Part shown: in pieces, positions 307-19,868 of the stretch
How positions within the stretch are numbered: position 1 is the first letter of the stretch
Layout of the letters: the number at the start of each line of letters is the position of its first letter
Assembly: GCA_040755315.1 (NCBI GenBank)
Contig: JBFMBF010000016.1
Span: 1 to 26,658, forward strand
Source: Candidatus Hadarchaeota archaeon
GTDB taxonomy: Archaea; Hadarchaeota; Hadarchaeia; Hadarchaeales; Hadarchaeaceae
Reading direction: 5' to 3'
DNA: 26,658 bases
The notes under the pieces: model-generated
Database searches by the model: none
What the model was told of the DNA's origin: nothing
Seen by the model: the letters and a program-made list of their open reading frames with translations, nothing else
Translations under genes and position numbers: made by a program

Positions 307-1095
307 TCAGTAAACTATCACGCTGCGGACGCTCGGCAGCTTCCGCATGGCGTCTATCACGTCACCTTTCACAGGCTCGTCAGTGATGATGGTGAGCTTC
401 GGCTGCGGCGTCAGGTAGGGATCGTCCGCCACCGCCTGCCTTATGCTTATGCCGAACTTTGCGAGGACGCCCGTGGTCTCCTTTATTATGCCAGGCTTCG
501 CCGCGTCCTTTGGCACTATCTCCACGACGCCCATCCCCAGTTGCTGGGCCACACCCTTCAGGTAGGCCACAGGCTCCAAGTTGGAAAATATCCCGGCCAG
601 CCCCTCGTCTTTCAGAATTCTCCCGGCCGTGAGGTCGACCACCCGCCTGTCCACCCCGGCCTCCTCGGCAATCTGGACTGCCGGAACCCTCATGTTGCCG
701 CAGAGGATGTCTCCGTCATTTCCGACCCTGAGCCCGTGCTTGAAGATGACCTTGGCGACGTTGAGCTGGGCCGGGAAATCCTTGAAGGCCTCCTGCACCC
801 TCGACCACATCCCGATCTCCCCCATGTGCTCCCTCTCCTCGCCGACCATCTGCGCCATGACCAGCCGCATCACGCTTTCGACAAAAGAAGGGTCGACCCC
901 TAGCTGCCTGGCCTGCTCCTTCGCCCTGTCAACAACCGCCCGCTCGCGCAGCTCGTCCCTCGCCCCCAGCTTCATGTTTTTCTTCAAGATGGCCAGTTCC
1001 TGCGCAACCTTGAGCCGCTGCGCAAGAATGGTTATTATCTGAGTATCCAGTTGGTCAATCTGCTTCCTGATTTCTTTCAGCCTGCTTTCGCTCAT
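307..1095 (-). CDS. Chorismate mutase (AroQ type) fused to an archaeal HTH+ACT regulator-like domain (COG2150-like)
   Basis: N-terminal LKEIRKQIDQLDTQIITILAQR...RDELRE AroQ pattern. From M96 (MWSRVQEAFKDFPAQ...IAEEAGVDRRVV...PGII...GISIRQAVADDP) it resembles the archaeal ACT-containing regulator. Lies in an operon with aroK and aroC. Confidence 0.8.
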   Translation of the reverse strand: MSESRLKEIRKQIDQLDTQIITILAQRLKVAQELAILKKNMKLGARDELRERAVVDRAKEQARQLGVDPSFVESVMRLVMAQMVGEEREHMGEIGMWSRVQEAFKDFPAQLNVAKVIFKHGLRVGNDGDILCGNMRVPAVQIAEEAGVDRRVVDLTAGRILKDEGLAGIFSNLEPVAYLKGVAQQLGMGVVEIVPKDAAKPGIIKETTGVLAKFGISIRQAVADDPYLTPQPKLTIITDEPVKGDVIDAMRKLPSVRSVIVY

Positions 1096-17921: not shown

Positions 17922-18041
17922 TCAGCCTAGTCTGCCCATCTTGCGCTGCTTGATCCTGCGCATCTTCCGCCGCATCCTCTTCCTGACCCACTTCCATCTC
18001 ATGCGGCCCTTTTTTTTCCATTTTCGTGGTCTTTTCCCGAT
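17922..18041 (-). CDS. rpl41e: Ribosomal protein eL41 (eS32), 39 aa, apparent ATC start
   Basis: Not in the track. Hand translation: (M)[38 protein letters not shown]. The first ATG is at 18002, and a G-rich SD lies upstream of the ATC at 18041. Confidence 0.88.
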
Positions 18042-18114: not shown

Positions 18115-18810
18115 CTACTTGCTCGCGAAAGCGCTTACATCTCTCTCTCGATTTATGAACAACATCAAGTAAGGTTTACAATTGCGCTTGCGTTCTTTTA
18201 CTTTGTAGATTTTGTGGTGAATTGAAAATCGGTCTAGCAACCTTCCCACATACTCCATGACTTCAAAATTAGTGTTTTTTGCGCCTATGTAACCATACAC
18301 ATATTTTTCTCTTTTGTGTCCGCCAACATGTCCTTCTCCATCAAAGAATCCTCTGAGGAACTCTTTTGGGTAAGCATCGATTATTGGCTTGTGTGCGTCG
18401 AGCGGCTTCTGCATAAAATTCACGATTGATCGAACAGCTGTTTCGGTACCCCATATTCCCCCACTGTTGTGAATTTTGTATGGTCGCCCCATAACATTTG
18501 AAAGACATCTACCAAATTCCTCGACAAAATCCTTATCCATAGCTTCAAGCTTGAACACTTCTTTGCTTGCAGTACAGTCACTGTAGCGTGCGGCAAGAAG
18601 ATAAGAAAGATTTGGAGAATAGGTTTCATCGAAGACTCCTATAACAACTGGTTTCCTGCCTTCATGTATCCAGCTGTCGATGGTACGCCGATTGACTATT
18701 CCTACTCCCAGTTCTTTCTCAATCTTCCTGCTCCCCCACCCTTTCGTTTCGTGTAATTTGATTGCACGCTCATAGAGATGGAGCGGTGTTGAATACCGCA
18801 TCGATTCCAC
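18115..18810 (-). CDS. Free-standing LAGLIDADG homing-endonuclease-like protein with N-terminal HTH; C-terminus frameshifted
   Basis: Motif 1 is degenerate (LSYLLAARYSDC) and motif 2 is intact (FLRGFFDGEG). AT-richer than its flanks. The expected VGFSIVRKAQKL tail lies in another frame, past the TAG. Confidence 0.85.
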   Translation of the reverse strand: MESMRYSTPLHLYERAIKLHETKGWGSRKIEKELGVGIVNRRTIDSWIHEGRKPVVIGVFDETYSPNLSYLLAARYSDCTASKEVFKLEAMDKDFVEEFGRCLSNVMGRPYKIHNSGGIWGTETAVRSIVNFMQKPLDAHKPIIDAYPKEFLRGFFDGEGHVGGHKREKYVYGYIGAKNTNFEVMEYVGRLLDRFSIHHKIYKVKERKRNCKPYLMLFINRERDVSAFASK

Positions 18811-18866: not shown

Positions 18867-19817
18867 TTATTCATTCCAGTTTTCACCAACTGAATGCTTG
18901 GGCGATGCAACCTCCCTTAGCGCGATTTTGTCCATATTTTTCGCTGCGGTTATCAGGTAAAGCTCCTCGAAAGAGAACTTCTCCCGCATGATCCTGGCAT
19001 GGAATCCCATCTCCTTCAAAACTTCCAGTGTTTTGAAGATGTTTGAGAGGGAGGACTGCACGAACATCGCCCGGCCGTTCTTTTCCAAGTGGTCTGGCAG
19101 CTCCCGCAAAAATCGGTCTATCACTAACCGCCCGTCAGGCCCCGCCTCCCAGGCGCGGTCAAGCCGCCCGCCAATCTCTTCACCCGGCCCGACAGGGAGG
19201 TAGGGAGGGTTGAACAGGATGAGGTCGAATCTCTCGCCCGCCACAGGTTCGAAAAGATCCCCCAGACGAAAGTCTATGCGGTCAGCCACTCCGTGGGCGG
19301 CGGCATTCCCGCGGGCGCACTCGATGGCAGAGGGGTTGATGTCAGTCGCCACAGTCTTGGCCCCGCCCTTCGCGGCCATAATCGCGAGCATCCCGCAGCC
19401 GGTGCCCAGCTCGAGGACCTTCTCGCCCGCCTGAGTTTCTAGGTTTTTTGCCAGTATCAGGGTGTCGTCAGCCGGCTCGTAAACTTCCGGGTGAACTGAG
19501 AACTTCATATTTTTGTAGAGCACGGCCTTCCCCATGCCGCCCGCCACAGGAGGGAATATTGAAATCACGTCGCCTTCCTCGAGTTTGGTGAGGGGACCGT
19601 CCAATCTGGCTATCAATTGCTCGTTTACAAGGATGCTGAACATTTTTCTCAGGTGCCCAGCTTCGTCGATGACCCTCCCCTGGAACTCCTTGCCCAGCCG
19701 CCCTGCCAGTTTTTTCACAGCGTCCTCGACCGTGGCTCCTTCTGGCACCTCCTCGTGGACAGATTTTTGACCGGCGAGCTCCCGCAGGTTGGAGAACAGC
19801 CTTATTTCCACCTTCAT
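18867..19817 (-). CDS. MoaD/SAMP ubiquitin-like domain fused in frame to a HemK2/PrmC-type N5-glutamine methyltransferase
   Basis: MKVEIRLFSNLRELAG...LEEGDVISIFPPVAGG followed directly by MGKAV...VYEPADDT, VLELGTGCG, FNPPY. Likely start ATG 19817 (track start 19826). Confidence 0.85.
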   Translation of the reverse strand: MKVEIRLFSNLRELAGQKSVHEEVPEGATVEDAVKKLAGRLGKEFQGRVIDEAGHLRKMFSILVNEQLIARLDGPLTKLEEGDVISIFPPVAGGMGKAVLYKNMKFSVHPEVYEPADDTLILAKNLETQAGEKVLELGTGCGMLAIMAAKGGAKTVATDINPSAIECARGNAAAHGVADRIDFRLGDLFEPVAGERFDLILFNPPYLPVGPGEEIGGRLDRAWEAGPDGRLVIDRFLRELPDHLEKNGRAMFVQSSLSNIFKTLEVLKEMGFHARIMREKFSFEELYLITAAKNMDKIALREVASPKHSVGENWNE

Positions 19818-19868
19818 GTTACACATAATGTCTGTTGTGAGTATTTTAGGGGGATTGTTGCGGGGGGT

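Follow-up and report, generated by a model that had tools for sequence, protein, structure and literature searches.

A MoaD/SAMP-type ubiquitin-like domain joined through Gly-Gly to a HemK2 methyltransferase in Hadarchaeota: a probable linear precursor processed by a JAMM protease

RESULTS AND DISCUSSION

A ubiquitin-like domain, Gly-Gly and HemK2 in one reading frame

The window, by which we mean the whole 26,658-nt stretch of DNA from a Candidatus Hadarchaeota archaeon (genome G000), carries on its reverse strand an open reading frame in which a MoaD/SAMP-type ubiquitin-like (Ubl) domain, a Gly-Gly pair and a HemK2-type methyltransferase follow one another in a single chain (P0001, Table 1); an in-frame ATG upstream at 19826 could add three residues. 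A preliminary description of this DNA had pointed out the arrangement, and coordinates and translation agree with it. Residues 3–94 score above the cut-offs of the NCBIfam model SAMP1 (NF041918, 72 bits, cut-off 60) and of moaD_arch (TIGR01687, 66.7 bits, cut-off 49.5), the Ubl domain matches PF02597 with an E-value of 2.8e-16 and the PDB entries 2m19, 1vjk, 2l83 and 3po0, and this part of the structural model shows the strand and helix order of a beta-grasp. The domain ends in PPVAGG (junction codons CCT GTG GCG GGC GGC ATG GGG), and as the Gly-Gly is internal and followed by 222 residues, the protein as translated has no free C-terminal Gly-Gly.

The methyltransferase part is complete, as had been claimed: the HemK2/MTQ2 model TIGR00537 covers residues 112–291 (188.6 bits, cut-off 87) and NF011529 covers residues 99–294 (209.2 bits, cut-off 162), and the score against the bacterial PrmC model TIGR03534 (89.4 bits) stays below its cut-off of 199.1. 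The motifs YEPADD, ELGTGCG and NPPY are present, and the SAM-binding GxGxG and NPPY are invariant in the alignment of fusions. The best PDB sequence matches of this part are N6AMT1/HEMK2, and the best Foldseek matches are N6AMT1/KMT9 (human N6AMT1/HEMK2) with a TM-score of ∼0.8 by target. In the AlphaFold model (mean pLDDT 83.2, pTM 0.67, alignment of 68 rows) two folded domains are separated by exposed coil, with pLDDT below 50 at residues 91–95, and residues 302–316 are disordered. The fused copy is the sole HemK2 in G000.

Table 1. Features of the window (positions in the 26,658-nt stretch)
Feature	Position	Strand	Basis
Ubl-GG-HemK2 fusion P0001, one 316-aa reading frame	18867..19817	-	zero internal stop codons; homologous fusions P0002–P0011
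SAMP1/MoaD-type beta-grasp (ubiquitin-like) domain, residues 1–94	19536..19817	-	NF041918, TIGR01687, PF02597 and PDB matches
Gly93-Gly94, predicted cleavage site (cut after Gly94)	19536..19541	-	invariant in 11/11 clusters; exposed coil; at the modelled JAMM interface
ATG at P1′, putative former hemK2 start codon	19533..19535	-	sister locus L208 reads GG-TGA-ATG-GGG; P1′ variable among fusions
HemK2/Mtq2 (N6AMT1-like) release-factor glutamine methyltransferase domain	18867..19535	-	TIGR00537, NF011529, PDB and fold matches
Free-standing LAGLIDADG endonuclease gene	18115..18810	-	PF14528
26-aa Arg/Lys-rich reading frame	17922..18002	-	
Chorismate mutase domain fused to ACT-domain regulator	307..1095	-	

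The Gly-Gly is conserved among fusions and the following residue is not

The same architecture, for which the preliminary description had proposed a search in related genomes, was found among the matches listed in 4 of 66 genomes of the phylum, belonging to three genera (G000, G002, G004 and G061), and in three further genomes (G013, G020 and G056) the Ubl and hemK2 genes are adjacent but separate. At least 11 protein clusters (90% identity) from NCBI, JGI, ENA and Logan are fused among the best 120 of 2303 database matches, and the closest homologues of P0001 bear Hadarchaeota names in their sources. hemK2 is mostly stand-alone across Hadarchaeota among the matches listed, and 74 of 80 metagenome hemK2 loci have no upstream Ubl. 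The ‘longer’ protein search beyond Hadarchaeota, an insensitive one, returned P0001 and P0002 as sole matches, and the best 150 matches from 1.84 billion representatives contained no full-length fusion, the known fusions being likewise missing there. The annotations seen on fusions name one domain (HemK2 for P0002, MoaD for P0008), and fused Ubl genes are liable to be annotated in this way.

Gly-Gly (G93 and G94) is invariant in all 11 fusion clusters, as are P89, P90 and V91; loss of Gly-Gly among fusion homologues had been named as an observation that would speak against the arrangement. The residue at P1′ is M, M, E, E, E, K, D, E, E, C and F in the 11 clusters. Met is limited to the lineage of G000 and its congener G002 (2 of 11 clusters), which have the same junction at 89% protein identity. 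By this alignment the conserved feature is Gly-Gly, and the Gly-Gly|Met junction, whose conservation had been proposed for checking, is particular to one lineage. The fused Ubl domains have a mean identity of 55%, and the fusion is present down to 58% identity (58–63%). A paralogous Ubl family with an HKDE motif in the same genomes has Gly-Gly in only 10 of 30 copies (among the matches listed) at a mean identity of 71%, and because the less similar fused domains keep it in 11 of 11 (Fisher p 1.6e-4, overstated as the members are kin), Gly-Gly clearly decays in this lineage once nothing requires it. The HKDE subfamily (G000:C2:53977–54309, L197 and relatives), in which Gly-Gly is gone from 20 of 30 copies while identity stays at 71%, is possibly a non-conjugating Ubl with a different role.

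No ATG, GTG or TTG was seen among the junction codons of the G061 fusion (up to the VYEP motif) or of the metagenome fusion L201 (first 25 codons), so that HemK2 in these two seems to arise solely as part of the fusion. Retention of the Gly-Gly codons merely as a ribosome-binding site is unlikely, because their third positions vary and in these two fusions no junction start codon was seen.

Fused and split forms differ at the Ubl stop codon

A split metagenome locus (L208) is sister to G000/G002 (support 99/98), and its gene order, Pth2, membrane protein, one extra gene, geranylgeranyl reductase, Ubl and hemK2, resembles that of the window. A stop codon occupies the P1′ slot of its junction and the start codon comes next (Table 1). 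At L208:3254–3330, near the hemK2 start, a run of six T contains a shift by one base, either real or a sequencing error. Spacing from Gly-Gly to VYEP is 17 codons in most fusions, and the E, K and C codons at P1′ can each be one base from a stop codon, which would fit stop-loss mutations. In a second junction type, shared by P0011 and L201, a spacer is read through; its length of 88–92 bases is frame-variable in seven split relatives, so that the spacer is non-coding there, and the hemK2 ATG in this type of fusion appears to have turned into ACG.

In an unrooted tree of 21 rows (12 of them fused), built from both domains with the junction left out, placing the 12 fused rows in one clade was rejected (AU p 1.9e-48), which eliminates a single origin of the fusion without reversals, and parsimony needs at least four changes between fused and split states. 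The tree of the methyltransferase alone is poorly resolved. Several separate fusions and an ancestral fusion with later fissions and a single re-fusion are equally possible. The boundary that shifts between fused and split forms always lies directly after Gly-Gly, and this comparison supports an origin of the fusion by loss of the Ubl stop codon before a neighbouring gene. Separate genes in close relatives, together with reads showing a stop or indel at the junction, had been regarded beforehand as grounds for giving up the fusion. Separate genes do exist (L208, G013, G020 and G056), yet they show where the fusion comes from and do not refute it.

Other Ubls are extended or fused beyond Gly-Gly

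We surveyed 146 Ubl rows of 61 genomes among the matches listed, a set outside which short ThiS-type Ubls fall. Of 116 non-HKDE rows, 63 end at Gly-Gly, 22 have short extensions, 28 are fusions, two are without Gly-Gly and one is truncated. Partners in the 28 fusions are E1 (22 rows in 21 genomes), HemK2 (four), an HD-domain protein (one) and a membrane protein (one), again among the matches listed. The Ubl-HD fusion (L084:777–2486 in G013; PF01966 and PF19276) has a GG-TTG junction, and in G020, G056 and G050 the two genes abut but are split, reading GG-TAG-TTG/GTG. In the membrane-protein case the Ubl of G002 (L077:1241–2197) reads through into a membrane-anchored protein with a carboxypeptidase-regulatory-like domain, where that of its congener G000 (G000:C3:10530–11482) does not, the codons being CAA and TAA, respectively. 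Both cases directly parallel the stop-codon loss at the Ubl-HemK2 boundary.

The Ubl-E1 fusions are of two kinds with internal Gly-Gly, PPVSGG and IPAVAGG (21 genomes; L071–L085, L088 and others among the matches listed), and three of the PPVSGG kind precede moaE. Ubls linked to moaE require a free Gly-Gly to function; five of 22 such Ubls, chosen from coordinates, have extensions and three are fused to E1. These moaE-linked Ubls are other paralogues than the Ubl fused to HemK2. G000 has five other Ubls, of which two are extended (GG|RI and GG|TAPV). Outside the phylum ∼40 of 134 MoaD-like representatives of a global library, which may favour odd sequences, extend past Gly-Gly; post-GG extensions are not peculiar to Hadarchaeota. 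The same library holds two tandem two-Ubl proteins with internal Gly-Gly (P0142 and P0162) and a protein (P0186) in which a Ubl is joined to an unannotated domain of ∼85 residues.

Extended Ubls accompany a PfJAMM1-type protease

The genes that Ubl processing and activation would call for, and that had been proposed for checking, are present: G000 encodes one E1 (PF00899, 277.8 bits) and two JAMMs. The closest PDB match of the JAMM on contig C4 (C4:55384–55833) is PfJAMM1 (5ld9 and 5lda), and that on C18 is closest to AfJAMM. The PfJAMM1 type (type A) and the AfJAMM type form two clean clades, and in 29 of 29 the JAMM motif E-HSH-S-D is unchanged. Some JAMM is present in 56 of 66 genomes, so that its mere presence predicts extended Ubls only weakly, and the split into two types alone is informative. 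We compared genomes that are at least 88% complete and have a sampled GG-bearing Ubl: of those with a type-A JAMM, 13 of 14 have an extended or fused Ubl, and of those without it, 0 of 14. The independence of this contrast is overstated, as the genomes are kin, and each type-A-negative genome contributed fewer sampled Ubls on average (1.5 versus 2.3). In G027, counted as without, a type-A-like fragment lies at a contig end; moving this genome gives 13 of 15 versus 0 of 13. At all levels of completeness the figures are 26 of 30 versus 5 of 25, four type-A genomes have only clean Ubls, and contrasts within the genera g7, g8 and g15 agree with the association. The five genomes with extended or fused Ubls in which a type-A JAMM was not found are 56–87% complete; one is the fusion genome G061 (80% complete), and the other three of the four fusion genomes have it. 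Methanobacteria were considered as a JAMM-free control and rejected as such, since a JAMM match is present in 61 of 61; they serve as a control for the AfJAMM type only, their nine classified JAMMs (one weak match left out) being all of that type and 14 of 14 MoaD ending at Gly-Gly. These comparisons point to the PfJAMM1 type rather than the AfJAMM type as the maturing enzyme.

A model of the C4 JAMM in complex with zinc and P0001 residues 1–102 scored 0.67, compared with 0.18 for the best control, passing a mark that 116 of 157 solved complexes and two of 215 mismatched pairs attain; the score expresses likeness to the solved 5lda, not binding, and the model may pass by that likeness. At least 93% of contacts were shared between runs, the partner had a pLDDT of 81 or more, and residues 88–99 of P0001 lay in the JAMM interface, against the metal-ligand region.

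Of the partner genes, Trm112 is present in 4/4 fusion genomes, which rules out the Ubl as a Trm112 substitute, and G000 also has an aRF1 gene. In G003 a PfJAMM1-type JAMM gene lies directly upstream of hemK2 and overlaps it (L011:1049–2103), which may be chance. MoaE is present in 50 of 66 genomes of the phylum and was not found in G000 (86.6% complete) or G004. Relatives of the fused Ubl lie near an AOR-like gene (identified by eye) and a radical SAM gene. The preliminary description had concluded from an AOR near the fusion that MoaD is needed; the AOR is there but ∼8 kb off, and with MoaE not found in G000 the argument is weak in the window.

A cleaved, near-neutral precursor as the preferred reading

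We consider it probable, at roughly 0.6, that the fusion is a cleaved, near-neutral linear precursor, cut by a JAMM and derived from stop-codon loss between neighbouring genes. The C4 protease, a zinc enzyme of the PfJAMM1 type, would bind the Ubl fold of the single chain and cut after Gly94 irrespective of the next residue. A ThiF/UbaA-type E1 would then, by its known chemistry, adenylate the freed Ubl-GG for sulfur transfer or sampylation, and freed HemK2 with Trm112 would methylate aRF1 at its GGQ. Loss of the Ubl stop codon before an adjacent gene would give the fusion, and since the mature C-terminus would be set by the protease and not by the stop codon, such losses would be tolerated and recurrent. 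HemK2 is probably a passenger that lay downstream rather than a functional partner. Persistence of the fusion down to 58% identity fits some benefit, and initiation at the junction ATG is possible in G000 and G002. That the Ubl is made as a proteolytically processed precursor had been suggested in the preliminary description; the invariant Gly-Gly with free P1′, the presence of E1 and a PfJAMM1-type JAMM, and the way in which extended and fused Ubls track JAMM type across the phylum all favour this suggestion.

The free P1′ matches the reported indifference of PfJAMM1 to what comes after Gly (PMC8832034, citing Cao 2017). The preferred reading also resembles known linear fusions of MoaD/SAMP domains, SAMP1-MoaE with HvJAMM1 (PMC4443979) and DrMoaD-MoaE with DR0402 (PMC8832034), where a second protein is likewise peptide-bonded after an internal Gly-Gly and the genome has a JAMM. 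Both in vivo and in vitro, HvJAMM1 is described as cutting an engineered SAMP1-MoaE exactly behind the final Gly (PMC4443979), and linear Ubl-MoaE fusions as inactive until cut by JAMM (PMC4443979, PMC8832034). Without Gly-Gly no in vivo cleavage was seen according to one report (PMC4443979), whereas according to another HvJAMM1 did not require it on linear fusions (PMC8832034). The partner in these fusions is an enzyme of the Ubl's own pathway; here it is a methyltransferase of a translation factor, not known to be connected with sulfur transfer, and the cleavage is predicted. Another parallel is ubiquitin-eL40/eS31, an N-terminal GG modifier on a translation-related protein, together with the ‘neutral’ algal ubiquitin fusions, which share varied partners once a protease makes fusion harmless (PMC11354881); unlike ubiquitin-eL40/eS31, the Hadarchaeal fusion has a MoaD/SAMP-type modifier and a predicted JAMM protease, and is patchy and reversible rather than fixed. 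The pro-ubiquitin of Caldiarchaeum subterraneum is another archaeal modifier with residues after Gly-Gly, described as refractory to E1 until cut by the JAMM Rpn11, which also cuts an engineered Ub-GFP (PMC5654768), but there a 9-residue pro-peptide follows a true ubiquitin, and here a whole enzyme follows a MoaD/SAMP Ubl. The MoaD-MoaE, Ubl-E1-TBP and Cgi121-Ubl fusions of archaea were catalogued earlier (PMC2948915), and the Hadarchaeal Ubl-E1 is of that kind; in the passages on such fusions in that catalogue, to which its supplement may add, we found neither a HemK2 or HD-domain partner nor a link to JAMM type. The methyltransferase itself resembles archaeal Mtq2-Trm112 in its class I fold with NPPY motif and in the accompanying Trm112 and aRF1 genes, and differs from HvoMtq2 in that the passages on the latter report no Ubl fusion (PMC6144793). 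The mechanism is thus known from MoaD-MoaE and pro-ubiquitin, and the literature searched contained neither the HemK2 partner nor the pattern across the lineage: none of the papers found deals with a Ubl-HemK2 fusion or with how Hadarchaeal Ubls are processed, though subscription journals or the supplements of PMC2948915 and PMC4443979 could list such a fusion.

Other readings have to be weighed against this one. The fusion might be cleaved but adaptive, the Ubl helping a HemK2 prone to aggregation as cis-chaperone or expression tag, or coupling Ubl supply to translation, as ubiquitin does for eL40 and eS31. H. volcanii Mtq2 is reported to be insoluble in E. coli without Trm112 (PMC6144793), a cis-chaperone role of ubiquitin has been described (PMC11354881), and the fusion is old (58–63% identity), recurs at the Ubl-HemK2 boundary and has lost the hemK2 start codon in G061 and L201. 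However, Trm112 is present in all four fusion genomes, HemK2 stands alone in most Hadarchaeota (among the matches listed) and sister lineages are split, and unrelated partners (HD domain, membrane protein and E1) fuse likewise, so that we regard an adaptive fusion as unlikely. It is less probable again that the Ubl stays attached, or is removed conditionally, as a degradation tag sending HemK2 to the 20S proteasome with the JAMM as switch. N-terminal Urm1 fusions of S. acidocaldarius are described as targeted to the 20S proteasome with PAN (PMC4569737), and G000 has a proteasome subunit and a Cdc48-like AAA ATPase (judged by length and Walker A motif), but a permanent tag has no obvious need for Gly-Gly, which is invariant here and decays in the HKDE paralogues, the extensions track the protease, and a constitutive degron is hard to reconcile with the doubled generation time reported on loss of mtq2 in H. 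volcanii (PMC6144793). A built-in degradation or folding tag, which the preliminary description had offered as an option, is weakly supported at best, since fused and split forms interchange and Trm112 accompanies the fusion in 4/4 genomes.

Somewhat more doubtful even than a degradation tag is a bypass in which translation of HemK2 begins internally, at the junction, and the Ubl read through in front of it is carried along without function. In G000 and G002 the ATG at P1′ is preceded by GGCGG ∼5 bases upstream, G004 has an ATG at P2′, and G000 has five other Ubls; yet no junction start codon was seen in G061 or L201, and the Ubl core and Gly-Gly are conserved across all fusions. Removal of the stop codon by an assembly or sequencing error might be suspected from the stop at the same place in L208, but G002 has the junction of G000 at 89% protein identity and 11 clusters from four sources are fused, which speaks against chance as well; because independent assemblies agree, an artefact is in practice excluded and we give it next to no weight.

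A wider view, which we put forward tentatively and at rather less than even odds, is that Hadarchaeota with a PfJAMM1-type protease arrived on their own at the manner in which eukaryotes make ubiquitin: the protease instead of the stop codon would define the Ubl end, and the genes would fuse repeatedly to whichever gene comes next, be it for HemK2, E1, an HD-domain protein or a membrane protein. The HemK2 fusion has perhaps become locked in by loss of the enzyme's own start codon, in which case a translation enzyme important for growth would rely on a cut of the deubiquitinase kind and would emerge with an N-terminal residue particular to its lineage. Hadarchaeota would then offer a present-day model, open to dating, for the origin of ubiquitin-ribosomal protein precursors by constructive neutral evolution. 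The fusion-precursor habit of eukaryotic ubiquitin is usually argued from fixed end states. In Hadarchaeota fused, split and short-extension states stand side by side in close relatives, the stop-codon changes are visible and the protease predicts them, and ‘protease first, fusions follow neutrally’ is thereby directly testable. The interest would lie less in HemK2 than in the comparative series tying repeated losses of Ubl stop codons to one JAMM type.

Other features of the window

Rfam gave no match in the window or in three loci. The 26-aa reading frame (Table 1), for which Pfam gave no match either, lies directly upstream of rpl21e and presumably resembles the ribosomal protein eL41; a similar sequence is found downstream of hemK2 in relatives, as antisense frames. 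Between this frame and the fusion lies the LAGLIDADG gene, which was seen at that place in none of the other loci examined and is 95% identical in G002.
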